From contig CAWGHO010000001.1 in assembly GCA_963822445.1 (NCBI GenBank), positions 1,184,001-1,248,000 of the forward strand: a DNA stretch of 64,000 nucleotides. Direction: 5' to 3'. Below the pieces are notes generated by a model. It was not told the DNA's origin. It worked only from the letters and a program-made list of their open reading frames with translations, and made no database searches. The position numbers and the translations under genes are program-made. Positions within the stretch are counted from its first letter, which is position 1, and the number at the start of each line of letters is the position of its first letter. Source of the stretch: an uncultured Acidobacteriota bacterium (GTDB lineage Bacteria > Acidobacteriota > Thermoanaerobaculia > Gp7-AA8). Shown one piece after another: positions 39,519-47,819 of the stretch.

Positions 39519-40439
39519 ATGCTCGATCAACATCGCTGGCTTCTCTCCGATCGCGTCCGGACGCTCGCTTTCCGGGACGCGATCCACCAGCTGGTCAAGC
39601 CCGGCGACGTCGTAGTCGACCTGGGCAGCGGCTCGGGAATCCTCGCCTTCTTCGCGGCTGAGGCTGGTGCGGCGCGGGTTTACGCGATCGAGAAGCAGCA
39701 CATCGCCGACGTGGCTTCGCTGGTCGCGCGGCACAACCGTTATCACGACCGGGTCGTCCTCCTGCACGAGTACTCCCTGAAAACGACAGTGCCCGAGCGG
39801 GCGAATGTCCTCATCACCGAGACCCTCGGCAACTTCGGTCTCGACGAGCAGATCGCCGGACTGACCATCGACGCGCGCGAGCGCTACCTGATGCCGGACG
39901 CGATCCTCATTCCCCAGCGCGTCGTGCTGTCCGCGGTTCCGGTCGAGCTTCTGGAGATGTTCGAGCGGCACATCGAGTGGTGGGGTGAATCGCGTTACGG
40001 CGTCGATCTCAAACCGCTGCGCACCTTCGCGTCGAACACGGTTTACGCCGCCGACGTCTCCGAGCGGGCGCATCTCGCCGCGCCGGCGACGATGGTCGAC
40101 ATCGATCTCCGAACGATAGAGACGTCCGATGCCGCTGGAAAGGCTGTCTTCATCGCGACCCGCGACGGCGTGCTGCACGGATTTGCAGGCTGGTTTGCCG
40201 CCACGATCGCGCCGGGCATCGTCATCTCCAATCCCGCTCCGCACGACACGCACTGGCAGCAGGCTTTCCTGCCGGTCGAACATCCCGTCGAAATCAAACG
40301 CGGCGACCAGATCGAGCTCGAGTTGCAGACGCACGACGGGCGGGCCTGGCGGTGGCGCGGGCGCGCCGCGGAGCAGGAGTTCGATCAGACCACCTGGCTC
40401 TCCGCGCCTCCGTGCACCCTTCTCGGCGCGCGGGACTAG
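39519..40439 (+). CDS. PRMT-like (protein arginine methyltransferase fold) SAM-dependent methyltransferase
   Basis: VVDLGSGSGIL motif I, VYAIE, double-E loop ITETLGNFGLDE, LHGFAGWF and THW loop (DTHWQQ). Confidence 0.8.
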   Translation: MLDQHRWLLSDRVRTLAFRDAIHQLVKPGDVVVDLGSGSGILAFFAAEAGAARVYAIEKQHIADVASLVARHNRYHDRVVLLHEYSLKTTVPERANVLITETLGNFGLDEQIAGLTIDARERYLMPDAILIPQRVVLSAVPVELLEMFERHIEWWGESRYGVDLKPLRTFASNTVYAADVSERAHLAAPATMVDIDLRTIETSDAAGKAVFIATRDGVLHGFAGWFAATIAPGIVISNPAPHDTHWQQAFLPVEHPVEIKRGDQIELELQTHDGRAWRWRGRAAEQEFDQTTWLSAPPCTLLGARD

Positions 40440-40449
40440 AATTCGCGGC

Positions 40450-41577
40450 ATGTACAGGGCCGCACTGCTTTTCGTCCTTCTCCTTCCCACGTTTGCATTC
40501 GCCCAGGGCCGCCGCGATGGCGACTGGCGTGAGTTTCCCGCGCAGAAAGGGTGCGTCGGCGGCAGCCGCTGCGCCGACAAGCGCTTCCGCATCGCGCTCG
40601 ATGACAGGCCGGTCATCGCCGTGCGATTCAGAGCGCATGATCAAATCGGCGAGACGGCCGGCGGCGTGTTGCGGGTGAAGATCGACGGCGACACGATCCG
40701 CGGCTACCTCGATATCCCCCGCGCCGGCGAGCTGTTCACGATCGACGTGGACGAGCTTCGCGGACGGCAGCTCGTGTTCGAGCCGGTCGCGAATGATGAA
40801 GTCGAGATCTCCGACATCGCGGTCATGTACAGCCGCGAGAATACGATCCGCCGCATCCCCGAGGCTCGTCGGGGCGGGCGGGGCGGCGGCGGACCGGGAT
40901 GGCGCTCGTATCCGAATGCCTCCGGTTGCATCGGCGGCGACGGCTGCCGCCAGAACGGCACCCGCATCACCATCCCTCTCGAAGAAGCCCCGGTCCTCGG
41001 CATCCGCTTTCACGCCCACGACAACGTCGGCAAACGCGCCGACGGCAAGCTGAGCGTGCGCATCGACGACACGACCATCGGCTGGTCGATCGACGTGCAG
41101 CGCAACGGCAAGCGCCATGACGTCGAGGTGGACAACGTCCGCGGCACGCGACTGGTGATCGAGACGGCGAACGACGACGAAGTCGAAGTCAGCGACGTCG
41201 AAGTGCTTTACGGCCGCCGCGGCGGAGTGGGCAGCAATGGCCCGCGCGAGATCGAGCACGAAGGCGGATGCATCGGCGGATCGGAATGCGGCGGCCGCCG
41301 CAATCGCATTCGCGTGGCCCTGCGCGATTACCCCGTCGAATCGATCCGCTTCTACGCCCGCGACGACGTCGGCACCAGGGCCGGCGGCGAGCTCCGCATC
41401 CGCATCGACGAGGAGATCCTCCGCGATTACCTCGACATCCCCCGCGAAGGCCGCACCTTCACCATCGACGGCAAAGGCCTGGTCGGCGAGTACCTGATCA
41501 TCGAGACGACCGAGGATGACGAAGTGGTGATCCGGGACATCAAGGTGAAGTTCGGGACGGGGGAGTACGACGATTAG
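40450..41577 (+). CDS. Secreted hypothetical protein with three tandem ~110-aa domains
   Basis: Signal peptide MYRAALLFVLLLPTFAFA; three copies of GC(V/I)GG..C...RF.A.D..G..A.G.L...ID...D(I/V).R.G...DEV. Confidence 0.8.
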   Translation: MYRAALLFVLLLPTFAFAQGRRDGDWREFPAQKGCVGGSRCADKRFRIALDDRPVIAVRFRAHDQIGETAGGVLRVKIDGDTIRGYLDIPRAGELFTIDVDELRGRQLVFEPVANDEVEISDIAVMYSRENTIRRIPEARRGGRGGGGPGWRSYPNASGCIGGDGCRQNGTRITIPLEEAPVLGIRFHAHDNVGKRADGKLSVRIDDTTIGWSIDVQRNGKRHDVEVDNVRGTRLVIETANDDEVEVSDVEVLYGRRGGVGSNGPREIEHEGGCIGGSECGGRRNRIRVALRDYPVESIRFYARDDVGTRAGGELRIRIDEEILRDYLDIPREGRTFTIDGKGLVGEYLIIETTEDDEVVIRDIKVKFGTGEYDD

Positions 41578-41888
41578 GGGCGCGGAGTTGATTGCGCGTA
41601 TCGCTACGGGCAATCCGGGTACGCGCCTGGATAAATCGCTTTTCCATTCTGGGGCGTGATCGCGTTCTGCAGGTAGGCGACTGAAGCGACAATTCCTTAG
41701 CCAGTTCAGATTGGCTTGAACACGCGCAATGATTGCAACCCCGCTCGCAAGAACCGCCTATACGTGCGACCAAAGGCGGTATGGCAGAGTGCCCATCCTG
41801 CTGCACCCGACCTTCGTAAGGCGCCGGTTTGGGCTGAGTCCCAAGGTGCACGCGTCGTACTTCAGAACAAACCGCACTTCTATACGCA

Positions 41889-41907
41889 GCCTAAATTCGA
41901 GTTATGC
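41889..41907 (+). other. attI-like recombination site
   Basis: GCCTAAA-TTCGA-GTTATGC resembles the attI1 simple site (CCCTAAA-ACAAA-GTTRRRY). GTTATGCCG is the exact complement of CGGCATAAC at 46515. Confidence 0.55.
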
Positions 41908-41948
41908 CGACGAACCGGAGAGTTAGCCAGACGTAAGATAAGCGACGC

Positions 41949-42569
41949 ATGAAATTGATTGCGATACTTGAATCATGGGTCATTCCCGACGGAAGTTACC
42001 CTCCATTCGCTGTCGGAATGCCGGTAAACCTGTCTTTCGAGATGGCAGTGCGACAGATCTCTATCAACGCCGCAGCTGAGGATTCGTTCGAATCGAATGG
42101 AGAGGGCGAGTACTCGTTTGCGGGCCGGGTTCTCGCAAAGTACAACGGTGGCGATCCGCTCGCGGTGGTCGAAGCAAGCGGGTTCCGCTTCTTCCTCGAA
42201 GGCACGCGCGCGCAGGAACTTCGCCCCGGTGAACGCGTTCAGGGACTAGGTTCTTTGGTGGTCGACTACTACATATGGGTCGAATACGTCAACGAACGTC
42301 GTGAGGCGCCGGACCTTTTCTACAACTTGGGCGTTCGCCGTATTCGGCGCGTCCAGATTCCGGATTCTCTCGTCAGCCGTCACGCCACAGGCAAGGCGCT
42401 TCCTGCCCGAGTCGCGCCATCGGAGTTCGGCGCAATCACCGAGTTGCAGACAATGGTCGGACAGGAATTTGACGAAGAGTTCTATCTCCTCGACCTAGAA
42501 ACGACCGATCTAGCAGTGCCGCGGACTTTCTCGGGTGAGCCCCGCGAGTTCCGCCTTGAACGCAGGTGA
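41949..42569 (+). CDS. Hypothetical protein (cassette gene)
   Basis: 206-aa ORF starting 27 nt after GTTAGCC (41922); no recognised motif. Confidence 0.75.
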   Translation: MKLIAILESWVIPDGSYPPFAVGMPVNLSFEMAVRQISINAAAEDSFESNGEGEYSFAGRVLAKYNGGDPLAVVEASGFRFFLEGTRAQELRPGERVQGLGSLVVDYYIWVEYVNERREAPDLFYNLGVRRIRRVQIPDSLVSRHATGKALPARVAPSEFGAITELQTMVGQEFDEEFYLLDLETTDLAVPRTFSGEPREFRLERR

Positions 42570-42624
42570 TCACGGATGAGCGTACTTGTGCGAAAATGCG
42601 TAATGCCAGCTGAGGTTCACACTG

Positions 42625-43002
42625 TTGGATTCCGCCGAGATTGAACGAGCTGTTTGGGTTGCGACAGGCGTCGCGGCAATCACCGCGGCTCTGCTCACAG
42701 TCGTTGTGTATTACCTTCAACAACTTACCGTCGCCACCACCGGCATGCGCGTGCTTGGCAGCGTTGCCGCTTTGCTTCTGTCGTTCGGCGTCTACATCTT
42801 TGCGGCAGTCGTATTTTCTATCGTCATAAACGCACAGTTGCGGCAGACGAGTTCCGAGGGAGCGTTGAGCGTGCCTTGGTCAACTGTCTTCATTCACCCA
42901 GGGCCCTTGCACAAACTGGCACCCCTCTTCGCAATAGCTGCAACTTGGGCAACTCTTGCTTTCGTCGCTAGGCGACACCGTTCGCGAGAAATCGCTGGCT
43001 AA
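42625..43002 (+). CDS. Hypothetical membrane protein (cassette gene)
   Basis: Three hydrophobic segments; stop TAA lies inside the attC R'' box GGCTAAC. Start uncertain (TTG). Confidence 0.6.
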   Translation: MDSAEIERAVWVATGVAAITAALLTVVVYYLQQLTVATTGMRVLGSVAALLLSFGVYIFAAVVFSIVINAQLRQTSSEGALSVPWSTVFIHPGPLHKLAPLFAIAATWATLAFVARRHRSREIAG

Positions 43003-43934
43003 CTGTTGCGTCTCAGGACGTTGTTCCGATCCAGGCGACTGATGGGTGGATTGTAAGAGAGCGCGGTATGCGCTCGGTGGTAGTTGTAGAAGTGAAGGTA
43101 CGGTGCGAGCCAACGGCGCCGTTCCTCGGAGCTGTGGTACGAGAACCGATAGGCCCATTCGCGCAGCAGCGTCTGGATGAACCGCTCCGCTTTACCGTTC
43201 GTCCGTGGTGTGTACGGCCGGATGCGGACGTGAGTGAGGTTCAGGCGGCTGCAGGTATCCCGGAAGTCGCGTGAGATGAAGGCCGATCCGTTGTCGGTCA
43301 TCACCCGCTCGACGATGACATTCCGCTGAGCGAACCACGCCACCGCCCGAGTCAAAAACGAGCTGGCAGTCTCGCTACGCTCATCTGCCAGGACGTCGAC
43401 GTAGGAGAGTCGGGTGAAGTCATCCGTCGCGACGTACACGAACTCGAAGCCCTGCTTCTTTGAGCCAAACGATCGACGCCTGGTGATGCGGTGTCCCACT
43501 CGATTGAACCGTCCCAGGCGCTTGATGTCGATGTGCACCAGTTCCCCCGGACGCTCCTTCTCGTACCGAATTGGCACTGTTGCCGGCTCAAGCTGACGCA
43601 ACCGAGCCAGCCCTGCTGACCGGCAGATCCGCGCTGCTGTCGACGCACTCACGCCCACTGCCTGCGCGATCTGTCGCACAGTCCGCCATTCGCGGCGAAG
43701 ACTCAGAACACGCTGTCGTTTTATGTCGCTCGTGGCCCGGCCCCTGTGCGGTCTGGAGCTCCGATCGTTAAGCGGCTCGACCCTCAGACCACGACGGATC
43801 CACTCCCGCCCTCGCCGGTCACTCATACCGGCGGCCTCCGACGCCTCGCGCACCGACCATCCTTGTTCGCAGACTCGCTTGACCAGCAGTGCTCGACTCA
43901 ACGGGCAGCTTCGCGCATTCTTGTGCACGTCCAT
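42999..43934 (-). CDS. IS481-family transposase
   Basis: MDVHKNAR, YEKERPGELVHIDIK, VMTDNGSAF and RPYTPRTNGKAERFIQTLLREWAY (DDE integrase core). Confidence 0.95.
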   Translation of the reverse strand: MDVHKNARSCPLSRALLVKRVCEQGWSVREASEAAGMSDRRGREWIRRGLRVEPLNDRSSRPHRGRATSDIKRQRVLSLRREWRTVRQIAQAVGVSASTAARICRSAGLARLRQLEPATVPIRYEKERPGELVHIDIKRLGRFNRVGHRITRRRSFGSKKQGFEFVYVATDDFTRLSYVDVLADERSETASSFLTRAVAWFAQRNVIVERVMTDNGSAFISRDFRDTCSRLNLTHVRIRPYTPRTNGKAERFIQTLLREWAYRFSYHSSEERRRWLAPYLHFYNYHRAHTALSYNPPISRLDRNNVLRRNS

Positions 43935-44037
43935 CTGGGTTCCTTCCTGTCAACCTGTTCGTTTGAGAGCTTTCAGATTGACGAAAGTCGCCCGGATGGA
44001 CAACCCGCTTCAAGGAACAACGTCCTGACACATCACA
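43004..44037 (-). mobile_element. IS481-family insertion sequence (1034 bp)
   Basis: TGT...ACA ends; 24-bp IRs with 20/24 identity; 6-bp target duplication GCTAAC (42998-43003, 44038-44043). Confidence 0.93.
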
Positions 44038-44094
44038 GCTAACTACTGCCAGGAGCTGTCGGCGGGCCGTTCGCCGCGCCCGGCGGCCGAGCCG

Positions 44095-45424
44095 CATTCG
44101 CATTAAGTTAAGAGCCGGCGTACCCTAAGTGTATGAATCGACGGGTGGATGAGCGGGAGTGGATTCAGTATCAATGGGACTATCTGGTGGCGCTGCTGGG
44201 TGGCAAGCGGCGCATTGAGCGGCTGGCGTATGAGACCGGTGCATTTACGCGACGGCGGAAGGTCGATAGTCCAAGTGATCTGCTGCGTCTGATCTTCACG
44301 TGGGCGGTTGCCGAACGGTCGTTGCAAGAGACTGCGGCCTTGGCTGCCGAGTCGGAACTGGCGGATCTGAGCGCGCCCGCTCTGCTGGGCCGATTCTCAC
44401 AGGCCGAGGCGTGGCTCGGGGCAGTTCTGGGTGATCTGCTCGCTGCGCGGAGCGCGGTCACCTACCGGGTACCGACGTCCGGTTAATCGATGCCACCTCA
44501 ATCAGTTGCCGTGGCAGCAACAACACCGAGCGCCGGGTCCATCTCGCGCTGGATCTACGTACGAACCGCACCACAGCGGTCGACCTCTCTGACCGGCACG
44601 GAGGCGAGACGCTGGAGCGCTTTGTCTTTCGTCCAGGGGAGATCGTGATTGCCGATCGCGGATATGCGAAGCGTAAGGACGTTGCGCACGTGTCGCGAAG
44701 CGGTGCATGGTTTGTGATCCGGATCGGCTGGACCAACCTGCCGCTCGAGCATCTGGACGGGGAACCTTTCGACCTGATTGGAACGCTTGGCGGCCTCCCT
44801 GAGGCGGCGGCTGCAGAGTTTTCCGTTCAGATTCGTACGGCGAAGGATGCGTTGGTGCCGTGCCCTGGTGGCTGTACGGAAGAGCGAACCAGCCGCCGAG
44901 CGCGCACGGCAGCAGATCCTCGCCGACGCCCGACGGCACGGCAATCCGCAGGTCGACCTGCGCACACTCGAAGCCGCGGGGTGCATATTCGTCATCACCA
45001 ATTTGCCCAACGAGATCTCGCCGAGAGCGTGCTGGAGCTCTATCGCCTACGGTGGCAGATCGAGATCAAGTTCAAGACCCTCAAGTCCGTACTTCACCTC
45101 GGAAACCCGCCGACCCGAAGCGGCGAGCTGCTGAACGTTTATCTCATGGCGAAGCTGATCGTTGCGCTGCTGATCGAGGAGTTCATCTATCAGGCCGAGT
45201 CTATTTCCCCCTGGGGATACCCGCTCGAGGCCAATACAACCGTGGCGGCTGACGCGACTCCTGCTTGAAGCTGTGATCGCCGCAATCCGGCCAGTGCTGT
45301 CGCTGCGACTCCGCTGGAGTCGGCCCCTTCGCTGTTCCCGTCATCTTGCCCAAGCGAATAGAAGTCGACCAAACCAGCGCACGTCGGCACGCTACGTTAC
45401 TGGAGACATAAGTTAATGCGAATG
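44095..45424 (+). mobile_element. IS4-family insertion sequence, IS186/IS421-like (1330 bp)
   Basis: IRs CATTCGCATTAAGTTA / TAAGTTAATGCGAATG (15/16 match); 11-bp target duplication CGGCCGAGCCG (44084-44094, 45425-45435). Confidence 0.9.
44133..45268 (+). pseudogene. IS186-like IS4 transposase, frameshifted (pseudogene or sequencing indels)
   Basis: Fragments GAFTRRRKV...DLLRL, IADRGY, TLEAAG.IFVITNLP and YRLRWQIE..FKTLKS.L.L in different frames; switches near 44470, 44865 and 45020. Confidence 0.82.
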
Positions 45425-45977
45425 CGGCCGAGCCGCCTACCACGTCCCGCGATGCACGGCGTCACGCCGCTTGCAACCGCGTCAACGTCAAATGCGGCAA
45501 GCGGCGTGCCGCGACTGCTCGCTCGCACGTGGGGCCTCGCCGCAGCTCAGGCGATAGACGTTCGTCGAGAAGCACCCTTTCCATGAACGCTTCGTATCTC
45601 GCACGTTGAACGCGTGCGTGGCGCGGCGCCGCGCCCAGGCGACGCGGACGCACGACTTCCAACCGCGCACAATTCGCTCGATGAAATAGACGGAGGTTTG
45701 CGAATCGGTTCGGGCAACATGGCAAAGCGCCAAGCGCCCCATCGGTGGCATCTTCAATCTAGCGCATCTCACGCGATCACCCTACTGTCCGCATGCCATT
45801 CAAACCGCGCAATAGACGGCGACCTCTATCGTTGCGGTGGTCGCTAAGCCAGTGCGTCTATTGGTTATTCGGTCGACGAACACAAAAAGCTTAAGGTGGC
45901 TTTATGGGAGCCCGACCGCGCCTGACTCACGCCGCAGGCCGAGTGTCGGACGATCACATGCTATTCTTGATCTGCCG

Positions 45978-46511
45978 ATGCAGAGCTCGAGAGGCATAGT
46001 TGTACGTGCAGCGACTTGGGTGGTCGCGGCCTTCCTTGCTTCGGGGTTCCAATTTTCAACCTCCGCGCAGGAATCGCAGCGTCTCACGGCAAGCGATGCA
46101 TTCGCCATGTACTCATCGATGCTTGCCGAGATTTCACACGCGTCGCTCGACGACTTTAAAACTGTCATCGGCTTGCTTGAACGAGACGGCTTCCGAAAGG
46201 CGTCCGACAACTCCTGGCGTTTCCGAAACGAAAGCGGCAGCGTCGTCGTCGCCGCGTACCCAGAGCAGGGATCGTACTTTGTCTCGCTTGCGCCCAAGAA
46301 TACAGGTCCGTTCGGCGATGCTGCTCTGGCCGCCCTGATAGCCAAGGCGGAGGCAGTCATGCTCGACAGCGGCGGACAATCCATCGAGATATTGCTTCGC
46401 CGATCGAACCAGCAACGTCTTGGGAAGACCGTCGAGGTCAGCGAGTACATCTACGTCGCCCTGAATGGTGCCATCTGGTGGCGAACGTCACGCGCAATCG
46501 TATGGCGCTAA
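45978..46511 (+). CDS. Hypothetical secreted protein (cassette gene)
   Basis: Signal-peptide-like MQSSRGIVVRAATWVVAAFLASGFQFSTSAQE; stop 5 nt before R'' GCATAAC. Start uncertain. Confidence 0.65.
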   Translation: MQSSRGIVVRAATWVVAAFLASGFQFSTSAQESQRLTASDAFAMYSSMLAEISHASLDDFKTVIGLLERDGFRKASDNSWRFRNESGSVVVAAYPEQGSYFVSLAPKNTGPFGDAALAALIAKAEAVMLDSGGQSIEILLRRSNQQRLGKTVEVSEYIYVALNGAIWWRTSRAIVWR

Positions 46512-46516
46512 ACGCG

Positions 46517-46714
46517 GCATAACTACTGCCAGGAGCTGTCGCGGCCCGGCTTCGGTCCGCCGGCCGAGCCGGCTGCTTTTTCGCCAGAGGGACGGCGTCA
46601 CGGCGGTTGCAGGTCGCCACTCGCTGCATCGCAGTTCATTGGCGGCAACCGCCGCGCCGCTCCGGCTTCGGCGCGCGGGCCCTGGCCGCGCAGCTCAGGC
46701 GATAGACGTTAGCC
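46517..46714 (+). other. attC-like site 2 (intact, 198 bp)
   Basis: GCATAAC-TACT-GCCAGGAGCTG-T-CGCGGCC ... GGCCGCG-CAGCTCAGGC-GATAGAC-GTTAGCC, with a long internal stem (CGGCGGTTGC/GCAACCGCCG). Confidence 0.85.
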
Positions 46715-46813
46715 TGACACCGAGAGAGAGCGCCAGAACTCATACTTTCGAGCGCCGCATCCCGATGACGTACTCGTGACGTAAGTCTCGGCACTCGTGT
46801 AAGATCGTTCGCA

Positions 46814-47038
46814 ATGCCACAAGCCTTCGACACCTCGCCGCGCGCAGCAGCCGTACACGCCCAGCTCTATCGTGACATCGGCCCAGCGAAGCGAGCTGAA
46901 ATCATGGCGGAGCTCAGCGACGCGCTACGAGATCTCGCTGCGGCCGGCGTCCGGCGACGACATCCTGAGTACGATGACGAGCGTGTTCGAAAAGAAGTCC
47001 TCGCGGTCTTCTATGGCCGCGGTCGAACGTCGCTGTGA
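46814..47038 (+). CDS. Small putative antitoxin, MenA1 (Rv0078B)-like
   Basis: 74 aa, DTSP...R......L.....R.L...G.R.RHPE; overlaps the downstream NTase gene (GTGA). Confidence 0.65.
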   Translation: MPQAFDTSPRAAAVHAQLYRDIGPAKRAEIMAELSDALRDLAAAGVRRRHPEYDDERVRKEVLAVFYGRGRTSL

Positions 47039-47592
47039 GCCTCCGAGACGCTTTTCGAAACATGCGAGATGCTCTTGAGGAGCTTGGAATACCGTACATG
47101 GTGACGGGTTCCGTCGCGAGCTCCGTGCACGGTGTTCCGCGAGCTACTCAAGACATCGATGTGATCATCGAGCCGACACGTGACCAGCTAGTTGCGCTCT
47201 TAAACAGGTTTTCCGAACCAATCTACGACGCCGATCGCGACGACGCTTTGGATGCTCTCAATCGACGATCAATGTTCAGCGTGATCGATCGCAGAGGCAT
47301 ATGGAAGATCGACTTCATCGTTCGCAAGCAGCGTCCGTTCAGTAAGAAAGAATTTGACCGACGGGTGAGAATCGATATTCTCGATGTTTTAGTGTATTCG
47401 GCGACACCGGAAGATGTACTCCTTGCAAAGCTCGAGTGGGCGAAATTGGGTGAATCCGAACGCCAGATCCGTGATGCTGCAGGCATCATCGAAATTCAGG
47501 GCGAGAAGCTTGACCGTGAGTATGTGGAGCGGTGGGCCGCAGCCCTGGATATTGAGGATCAATTGCACGCAGCACGAGCAAAGGCAGGCTAA
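47035..47592 (+). CDS. Nucleotidyltransferase-fold protein, MenT1-like putative toxin
   Basis: GSVASSVHGVPRATQDID (GS...DxD), KIDF, EDVLLAKL.W...SERQ.RD; stop inside R'' GGCTAAC. Confidence 0.75.
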   Translation: MSLRDAFRNMRDALEELGIPYMVTGSVASSVHGVPRATQDIDVIIEPTRDQLVALLNRFSEPIYDADRDDALDALNRRSMFSVIDRRGIWKIDFIVRKQRPFSKKEFDRRVRIDILDVLVYSATPEDVLLAKLEWAKLGESERQIRDAAGIIEIQGEKLDREYVERWAAALDIEDQLHAARAKAG

Positions 47593-47767
47593 CTACTGCC
47601 CGAGGCTGTCGGAGAGCCGTCTGCCGCGCCCGGCGCTGAAGCGCCTCGTGAAGCGTTGCTTGCCCGCGGAAGGCCGGCCATCCCTACGCGCCACGGCGCC
47701 GAGGAGCGCGCCACGCAAACCCTACCCACGCGGAACCTCGCCGCATCTCACGCGTTAGACGCTGGAT
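47587..47767 (+). other. attC-like site 3 (terminal, degenerate, 181 bp)
   Basis: GGCTAACTACTGCCCGAGGCTGTCGG ... CGCCGCATCTCACGCGTTAGACGCTGG aligns with the other copies, with GCT in place of the R' GTT. Confidence 0.7.
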
Positions 47768-47819
47768 TGCCCTCGATTCCGATAGCATCGAGCCCCGTAG
47801 CCGTCAGGGAGGGAGAAAG

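Follow-up and report, generated by a model that had tools for sequence, protein, structure and literature searches.

A gene cassette apparently nested in the leader of another cassette, at a short palindromic site of an integrase-less attC cluster in an Acidobacteriota genome

The action of integron integrases at non-canonical sites has mostly been shown in class 1 integron experiments, and natural footprints of it have rarely been resolved at the level of the single base in the large chromosomal integrons that soil bacteria carry. The insertion of gene cassettes at secondary sites, or attG sites, was reportedly described by Francia in 1993, by Recchia and Hall in 1995 and by Loot in 2024; clusters of attC sites lacking an integrase (CALIN) are said to have been described by Cury in 2016, and fused cassettes that lost an attC have reportedly been described as well. 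In one report, attI is presented as two inverted integrase boxes 4-5 bp apart, which are used double-stranded (PMC12614218). Two other sources state that integrases insert cassettes at genomic sites in which only GWT or GNT is needed (bioRxiv 10.1101/2022.09.11.507474; PMC10127599), and the first of them adds that, both in their sequence and in their structure, attG sites are broadly different from attC and attI (bioRxiv 10.1101/2022.09.11.507474). Here we report on a locus in the genome of an uncultured Acidobacteriota bacterium in which one cassette, named cassette 1, appears to be nested in the 5' leader of another one, cassette B, at an exact G|TT crossover which is neither an attC nor an attI. 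The window, by which we mean the whole stretch of 64,000 nucleotides that was analysed, is C1:1184001-1248000 of the genome G000, whose three contigs (C1-C3) amount to about 6.0 Mb; positions given without a contig name are those of the window.

The assignment of the pieces of this locus relies on a rule for cassette ends, derived from the resident attC family, which is about 200 nt long and is the same in the window and in the main cassette array on contig C2. For the searches we used an nhmmer profile of 215 model positions, built from 57 resident copies of the attC of the window. The 104 cassette starts that follow an attC gave the consensus GTT[A/G]G[G/C]C[G/C]GAC, in which positions 1-11 are strongly conserved, with a weaker G/C-A-A after them, and position 5 is a G in all 104. 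In 80 of 84 main-array cassettes the first 9 nt are perfectly complementary to the cassette's own R'' box (the 9 nt ending in AAC), and the run of perfect pairing is exactly 9 in 79 cassettes and 10 in one. The four exceptions are three cassettes cut by an element of the IS481 family and one fused cassette. The latter, C2:2191930-2192815, shares 861 nt with a further copy of the same cassette, C2:2120750-2121612, and has the first 39 nt of a different cassette in place of its own first 19, with a joint that lacks GTT; it is a fusion by deletion and one of the exceptions to the 9-nt rule. Such a rule is simple and testable, and lets the ownership of cassettes be read like brackets.

At the locus under study, the G of each G|TT crossover is found at 41901 (J0), 41922 (J1), 45560 (J2) and 46708 (J3). 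The nonamer at 41901-41909, GTTATGCCG, is the exact reverse complement of CGGCATAAC (46515-46523), which is the R'' of attC_B, a full-length attC of the resident family (46515-46708, + strand) that scored 188.5 bits on the profile and is up to 95% identical to the main-array attC sites. When 41901 is taken as the start of cassette B, the pairing with the R'' of attC_B is 9 out of 9, followed by a mismatch at position 10, as in 79 of the 84 main-array cassettes. Moreover, the T at position 5 of this start is present in none of the 104 other starts, and its partner, ATAAC, in one of the 108 R'' boxes, the one being that of attC_B (the others are CTAAC in 81 cases, CCAAC in 22, CGAAC in 3 and TCAAC in 1). 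GTTATGCCG occurs 19 times in the 12 million strand-positions of the genome, and the 41901 start has a start-motif score of 13.0, compared to a median of 16.7 for the true starts. Because it follows the 9-nt rule and carries the unique T:A variant, the segment 41901-41922 can be attributed to the cassette ending in attC_B, of which it is the 5' end; the part downstream of the crossover is a stub of 21 nt (S1, 41902-41922, + strand), severed from the rest of cassette B by cassette 1.

Cassette 1 itself (41923-45560, + strand) has G|TT at both ends, and the first 9 nt of its start, with the G at 41922, all pair with the R'' of this cassette at 42995-43003; exact ends of this kind together with such pairing would not result from a random deletion. 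Since the stub is owned by attC_B and cassette 1 obeys the same rule, cassette 1 appears to be nested in cassette B, at a distance of 21 nt from the crossover point of B itself and with exact G|TT junctions on both sides. An earlier reading made from the sequence only (hereafter, the sequence-only reading) had placed cassette 1 within a unit running from 41901 to the attC at 46515-46708, and the 9-nt rule and the T:A variant now bear this out. The same reading had given the limits of cassette 1 as 41923-45560 and had claimed that its removal restores a perfect inverted repeat, which we could confirm by direct reading. In fact, deleting this segment rejoins a left arm, CGACGAAC (41908-41915, + strand), a spacer, CGGAGA (41916-41921, + strand), and a right arm, GTTCGTCG (45560-45567, + strand), made of the last G of attC1, the attC of cassette 1, and of the first 7 nt past the crossover; the product is a perfect 8-bp inverted repeat of the form AAC-N6-GTT.

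Palindromes of this quality are rare in the genome. Perfect 8-bp AAC-N(3-10)-GTT palindromes number 14 in 6.0 Mb, corresponding to 28 of the 132,399 GTT sites on both strands (about 2e-4), and one other of them lies within 3 kb of an attC. The 8-mer of the arm alone is common, with 11 occurrences in the window against 8.9 expected, a number reached by 29 of 100 shuffles. The fold of the rejoined site has an energy of -9.0 kcal/mol on the top strand and of -9.4 kcal/mol on the bottom strand, and the same hairpin is formed on either one. The sequence to the right of J2, with the G at 45560, showed a start score of -6.2, the least start-like of 104, and this low value fits internal sequence of cassette B. 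The left arm corresponds to the end of the conserved motif with which cassettes begin, GTTAGSCSGACGAA, which is common, wholly or partly, to most of the 104 starts, and for this reason it is not a device special to cassette B; the full 8-mer CGACGAAC is present at the same offset in three main-array cassettes, none of which then has a complementary GTT arm.

The rejoined 22-bp site can be compared with each of the described types. It shares with attC sites, including those with internal deletions, an R''/R' arm pair in the right order, with AAC and GTT in perfect 8-bp arms and the cut at the position of R'. By contrast, it is a mini-site of 22-24 nt versus about 200 nt, it has no L''/L' boxes, bulged bases or central spacer, the arms being 6 nt apart, and a profile search of 41560-41925 and 45563-46000 (nhmmer --max, E up to 100) gave no match. 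The site is not an attC by any structural test; a collapsed attC had been one of the two options named in the sequence-only reading. The simple site of attI, formed by the L and R boxes, is similar in having two inverted AAC/GTT boxes around a short spacer and the cut at G|TT of the right box, whereas the site described here has a spacer of 6 bp rather than 4-5 bp, perfectly symmetric arms and no adjacent integrase gene or accessory repeats, and it travels with a cassette; its use as a duplex is predicted. No integrase gene is beside it, and the attI-like core of the cluster itself is 21 nt upstream of it. With attG and other secondary sites it shares the joining of a cassette, through an exact G|TT, to DNA outside attC and attI, and the need for little beyond GTT: the GTT of the rejoined form is at 45560-45562, and G|TT is found on both sides of cassette 1; like them, it would presumably serve the integrase as a double-stranded recipient that is singly cleaved. 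The difference is that the recipient is here in the leader of another cassette, 21 nt from its crossover, and is a perfect two-arm palindrome, a word that does not appear in the accessible text of the preprint on attG (bioRxiv 10.1101/2022.09.11.507474).

Fused gene cassettes are also similar, since one start and one attC bound more than one former cassette; fusions, however, lose an attC, whereas the inner cassette 1 keeps a complete attC and exact junctions. From this comparison, the locus would work like an insertion of the attG or attI type, so that the kind is known and the variant is a cassette nested in a leader at a symmetric minimal site. We consider it a rare natural case of off-target integration and not a new kind of system.

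The reading that we find most economical, to which we assign an even chance, is a single canonical event, a recombination between attC1 and a two-arm site, in double-stranded form, that belonged to the leader of cassette B. The integron integrase of the genome would have inserted cassette 1 at a G|TT of this 5' leader, 21 nt from where cassette B begins, in a sequence that is neither attC nor attI. Cassette B, consisting of 41902-41922 and 45561-46708, would be the first cassette of an integrase-less cluster, adjoining an attI-like core. The target would have been a double-stranded secondary site resembling attI or attG, with two inverted 8-bp arms and 6 bp between them, of which the left one is provided by the conserved start motif and the right one carries the GTT that is cut. 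Later on, attC1 would have been hit by an element of the IS4 family, now decayed, and by one of the IS481 family, which may have frozen the arrangement. We infer both the integrase as the agent and the order of these events. If the nesting is accepted, that each of the two arms bound an integrase monomer might equally well be true or false, and the symmetry may or may not have played a part.

The sequence-only reading had suggested that cassette B brings its own landing pad: the rarity of the palindrome and the canonical junctions speak for this, while the left arm turned out to be a generic start motif and no other cassette with such a site was found at the 104 junctions or in 124 genomes, so that the suggestion stands only in part. 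It is possible, if doubtful, that a perfect 22-24-bp R''-N6-R' palindrome devoid of L boxes, bulged bases and variable loop is a working minimal site for this integrase, either as the shrunken attC of a gene-less cassette or as a leader-borne site built from the start motif. Alternatively, and we hold this to be somewhat unlikely, the nesting is real and the site is an ordinary GWT secondary site of the attG type, whose symmetry with the start motif is irrelevant. Such sites need no more than GWT or GNT, and experiments show frequent insertion at them (bioRxiv 10.1101/2022.09.11.507474; PMC10127599); in addition, the left arm exists for other reasons and no recurrence of the site was found in the genomes that we searched. 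On the other hand, an ordinary site would have to coincide with a perfect 8-bp complement at 6-nt spacing, a combination shown by roughly 2 in every 10,000 of the GTT sites in the genome.

Several observations weigh against a simple nested insertion. The first is the distance of 6 bp between the arms, compared to the 4-5 bp of attI. Secondly, the right arm extended to 9 nt pairs 9 out of 9, and then mismatches, with TCGACGAAC at 45873-45881, compared to 8 with the left arm, and a run of nine followed by a mismatch, here between 45560-45568 and 45873-45881, is what a cassette start and the R'' of the same cassette display. This complementarity had been pointed out in the sequence-only reading and is indeed present; the nonamer at 45560-45568 has 329 copies in the genome, and the chance of a partner within 1.15 kb is about 0.03. 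The perfect 9-bp inverted repeat closes segment X (45561-45881, + strand), which is either a long leader of cassette B or the remnant of a gene-less cassette. Thirdly, the genome has just two copies of GTTAT-N(1-8)-CGACGAAC, located on the same strand at 41901 and at 45864. The second occurrence, found by motif search and named DR2 (45864-45881, + strand), is an imperfect start of the cassette B type that matches 7 out of 9 with the R'' of attC_B and has a start-motif score of 4.3, equal to background. The two copies form an imperfect direct repeat (15 and 18 nt) that brackets the spacer, cassette 1 and 45561-45863, and a simple nested insertion leaves the second B-type start at 45864-45881 unexplained. 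Since a 9-bp inverted repeat closes segment X, and the direct repeat on its flanks exists in no more than these two copies in the genome, the history of the locus is more complex than simple nesting.

A further point of the same sign is that ATAGACG, the heptamer ending nearly every resident attC just ahead of TT, is present three times in 45561-45881 (45686-45692 and 45812-45818 on the + strand, 45855-45861 on the - strand), against about 0.015 expected from the genome rate of 2.3e-5 per position; elsewhere in the window there are four copies, two of them being attC ends. The last two copies in segment X form an inverted repeat of 9-10 bp, about 36 nt apart, upstream of gene B, and the copies could be recombination debris or a putative binding site. 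Finally, the contiguity of 41922 and 45561 is deduced from the sequence alone, with no empty allele, second copy or homologue found, and no second nested insert or site of this type was observed at the 104 junctions of this genome or in 124 genomes of the family.

Part of these observations would be accommodated if segment X, together with the 7 nt at 41916-41922, were a gene-less cassette whose site has shrunk to R''-6 nt-R' and forms a 9-bp hairpin when circular, a possibility that we regard as unlikely. Cassette B would once have run from its start, GTTATGCC...GAAC, straight into 45882, and X, by itself or joined to cassette 1 in a circle of two cassettes, would have entered B within the shared 8-mer CGACGAAC, by top-strand integrase cleavage at AA|C or by short-homology recombination; had X entered alone, cassette 1 would later have integrated at the mini site of X. 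All four units would then obey the 9-nt rule exactly, the 8-mer direct repeat would flank the insert (41908-41915 and 45874-45881) and the wider repeat GTTAT...CGACGAAC would be found, as it is, at these two places of the genome only. Collapsed attC sites do occur in the genome (C3:373388-373472 and C2:479962-480074), and the 312 nt of X ahead of R'' are close to the 298-305 nt of a family of small cassettes in the main array. By contrast, the start of X would be the least cassette-like of 104 (-6.2), without GAC at positions 9-11, and the crossover on the R'' side would have to be non-canonical. Furthermore, a 9-bp stem with a 6-nt loop and no L box or bulged bases would, by current models, bind one integrase monomer only; no copy of X was found elsewhere and X is unrelated to the small-cassette family; and GTTAT at the end of X would be a coincidence, unless homology drove the event.

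The sequence-only reading had also allowed for 45561-45881 as an independent cassette devoid of open reading frames (ORFs). In favour of it, the ends pair 9 out of 9 and the 3' end is a copy of a B-type start; against it, neither a whole nor a decayed attC was found. In fact, local alignment for a hidden attC in 45561-45881 scored 28.0, compared to 28.3 +/- 3.1 in 60 shuffles, the fold had a z of 0.54, and the Rfam search of segment X and 41560-41925 gave 0 matches at E up to 1. The 77-codon ORF at 45614-45847 is not gene-like. Segment X was also tried as a member of the 12-copy small-cassette family, with no hit.

A reading without any nesting, which we judge quite unlikely, starts from the same second B-type start. 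The array would once have contained two related cassettes of the B type. A deletion running from an internal GTT of the first one to the attC of the same cassette would have reduced it to the 21-nt stub, which is followed by cassette 1 and by a cassette (45561-45864) that has decayed and has no attC; the surviving cassette B would start at 45864 and the palindrome would be coincidental. The sequence at 45864-45881 does resemble a B-type start, the debris-like copies of ATAGACG lie just upstream, one of them 2 nt ahead of the G at 45864 although inverted, and fusion by deletion is found in the genome, as in C2:2191930-2192815 with the first 39 nt of another cassette. However, 45864-45872 matches only 7 out of 9 with the R'' of attC_B, a value as poor being found in the main array only in cassettes that are fused or cut by an insertion sequence (IS), namely 4 of 84, and the start-motif score of 4.3 at 45864 is at background. 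This history would also require that a duplicate and an attC were lost and that several mutations occurred; neither the perfect palindrome (about 2e-4) nor the atypical start at 45560 would be explained by it, and no remnant of an attC is detectable.

For the nested arrangement, we searched for an empty allele and for recurrence in other genomes. The 22-mer at 41901-41922 had 0 exact matches in public metagenome contigs and genome contigs, and the 24-mer ending at 45881 had 0 in public metagenome contigs; the search for the empty allele in these contigs covered these two words, one from the stub and one from the end of segment X. Ten sequencing runs contained each no more than 0.06 of the sampled words. 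Four soil-metagenome runs compared with 41700-46800 at 85% likeness gave attC and IS parts only, from other soil organisms; their zero read depth at 41700-42041 and 45804-46487 is uninformative on the empty allele. In 40 relatives, the DNA of 45561-46515 had one match of 33 nt (E 6.5e-4).

Within the genome, a second start-like motif within 80 nt was found at 5 of 104 junctions, always at a distance of at least 55 nt or inside an IS, and no other junction has a second canonical start at 12-45 nt, apart from IS sequence. AAC-N(4-8)-canonical-start, with 12 hits genome-wide, is not found elsewhere in an integron context outside the normal attC ends. In 120 other genomes of the family the arm-N6-arm motif gave 4 hits (one in the unpublished genome G095), versus 1 for the reversed control, and no attC was found near these 4 hits in the fetched loci. 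A double cassette start was observed in 2 of 124 family genomes, G000 itself and G021, the latter without an attC nearby. A phrase-level literature search did not find, among the papers listed, a cassette nested in the leader of another at a symmetric minimal site, which is no proof of its being unpublished. We also considered an assembly artefact, that is a chimeric join at a repeated attC or IS sequence: the locus does hold repeats, both attC sites and a 4-copy IS; however, the joints 41922/41923 and 45560/45561 are unique on at least one side and the genome was assembled in 3 contigs of 1.6-2.5 Mb, which makes this explanation very improbable.

If the nesting is correct, the locus is a base-exact natural example of integration at a non-canonical site and offers a candidate minimal two-arm site that can be directly tested. 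Should the palindrome be active, it would bear on the minimum DNA need of an integron integrase, on the growth of integrase-less clusters and on cassette fusion. Were the minimal-site reading true, cassettes could be stacked inside cassettes, and recombination could occur in either orientation, since both strands fold alike. Should the palindrome be inactive, the locus would represent one more off-target insertion frozen by two IS.

Gene B, the gene of cassette B (45978-46511, + strand), is an orphan ORF coding for 177 aa, with a hydrophobic N-terminus that resembles, by eye, a signal peptide, and it matched no Pfam or NCBIfam family. Homologous cassettes of this gene, to which the sequence-only reading had looked for a check of the 5' end, were not found: among 483 candidates of similar length gene B found only itself, and among 184 pattern matches there was no related locus. 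The scan for promoters and terminators gave results at shuffle level only. Leader length was tried as a discriminator and rejected, as the 436-nt leader of cassette B is unexceptional (the median is 91 nt, and 7 of 47 leaders exceed 400 nt).

As for the genomic context, a single integron integrase is encoded in the genome, in an open frame at C2:2118113-2119048 (456 bits on TIGR02249, cut-off 265). The attC profile gave 127 hits genome-wide at E <= 0.01, of which 93 are in one array (C2:2120558-2226598; 92 on the + strand), the rest being scattered clusters and fragments. The hits in the window are at 44038-44120 and 45424-45567, which are two parts of one attC, at 46509-46719 and at 47581-47768. 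The attC identity of the 3' flanking repeat is firmly supported by an 18-mer with 2 matches versus 0.04 expected, and that of the 5' flanking repeat by a 21-mer with 3 matches versus 0.00 expected. No integron integrase was found among the 20 ORFs tested at 35.8-51.6 kb of the window. With three attC sites, no integrase nearby and the integrase on contig C2, the locus in the window is a CALIN, the large chromosomal integron being elsewhere in the genome. It is like other CALINs in having three attC sites of one family and the integrase at a distance, and different in its nested cassette and in the two IS within one attC.

All 34 genomes examined in the genus have the gene on the left flank (40129-41577), a count that includes the unpublished G002 and G041, and the similarity ends by position 41581. 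The right flank is not syntenic, with some match in 19 of 34 genomes (the unpublished G041 included), mostly to a glyoxalase gene at other places. In six relatives the left-flank gene is followed by a variable gap (1.4-3.9 kb in the two inspected) and then by homologues of the window from 51.7 kb onward; because the gaps across which relatives join these two parts differ, 41.6-51.7 kb of the window is a variable stretch. An empty site of the whole cluster was not recovered in the relatives of the genus, whose intergenic DNA is unrelated.

Some features of the rest of the integron were also recorded. In the main integron (C2:2118113-2119405) the integrase gene and the cassettes share one strand, and GTTATGG/GTTATGC motifs recur between this gene and the first cassette start at C2:2119405. 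They recall the accessory direct repeats of attI1. The main array includes 12 near-identical small cassettes (e.g. C2:2155126-2155426), with 298-305 nt ahead of R'' and an attC variant of their own, AACAACTCACAG... In the centrally deleted attC sites at C3:373388-373472 and C2:479962-480074 the 5' and 3' ends of the model abut, for a total of about 85-110 nt.

Cassette 1 contains two ORFs, 41949-42569 (206 aa) and 42625-43002 (125 aa), both without Pfam or NCBIfam hits, and an attC in three pieces. This site, attC1 (42995-45560, + strand), is split by two IS into 42995-43003, 44044-44095 and 45437-45560; after their removal in silico it scored 133.1 bits (E 1e-42) over model positions 4-207 of 215, and soil-metagenome contigs join across it from 44083/44095 to 45445/45446. 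Once both IS are removed, attC1 is a complete attC. The first IS, of the IS481 family (43004-44037, - strand; transposase at 42999-43934, NF033577 263.3 bits, cut-off 224), is in the R'' and is flanked by a 6-bp duplication, GCTAAC. It has 4 copies in the genome that are 99.9-100% identical (window 43004-44037; C2:2203359-2204392, C2:2211840-2212873 and C2:2220435-2221468), each of them located at (S)CTAAC of an attC R box and accompanied by a duplication of 5-6 bp; three are in R'' and one, oppositely oriented, is in R'. Thus distributed, the element looks like an attC-targeting IS; we know of no such targeting for the IS481 family. The second IS, in the middle of attC1 (44096-45423, + strand), is a decayed element of the IS4 family, of which the DDE_Tnp_1 and IS4 models match a fragment only; it has a single genome copy, its reading frame is broken into 44133-44486 and 44645-45268, and it is flanked by a direct repeat of 11-13 bp (44083-44095 and 45424-45436).

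At the left end of the cluster, the attI-like core (41890-41903, + strand) consists of a CCTAAA box, 5 nt and G|TT, with the G at 41901. By eye, this arrangement, in which a CTAAA/CTAAT-like box is separated by 5 nt from G|TT with a canonical start, is seen at the main attI (C2:2119390-2119407) and, on the - strand, at C3:161308, C3:1337129 and C3:1755969, and the left ends of integrase-less clusters are probably attI-like simple sites without an integrase. On the other side, cassette 3 (46709-47761, + strand) carries the ORFs 46814-47038 (74 aa) and 47035-47592 (185 aa, a DUF6036 nucleotidyltransferase according to Pfam), and its start pairs 9 out of 9 with its own R''. Its attC, attC3 (about 47584-47761), has diverged (35.4 bits) and shows GCT instead of GTT at the aligned crossover (47761-47763), which would fit a first insertion into a chromosomal GNT site.

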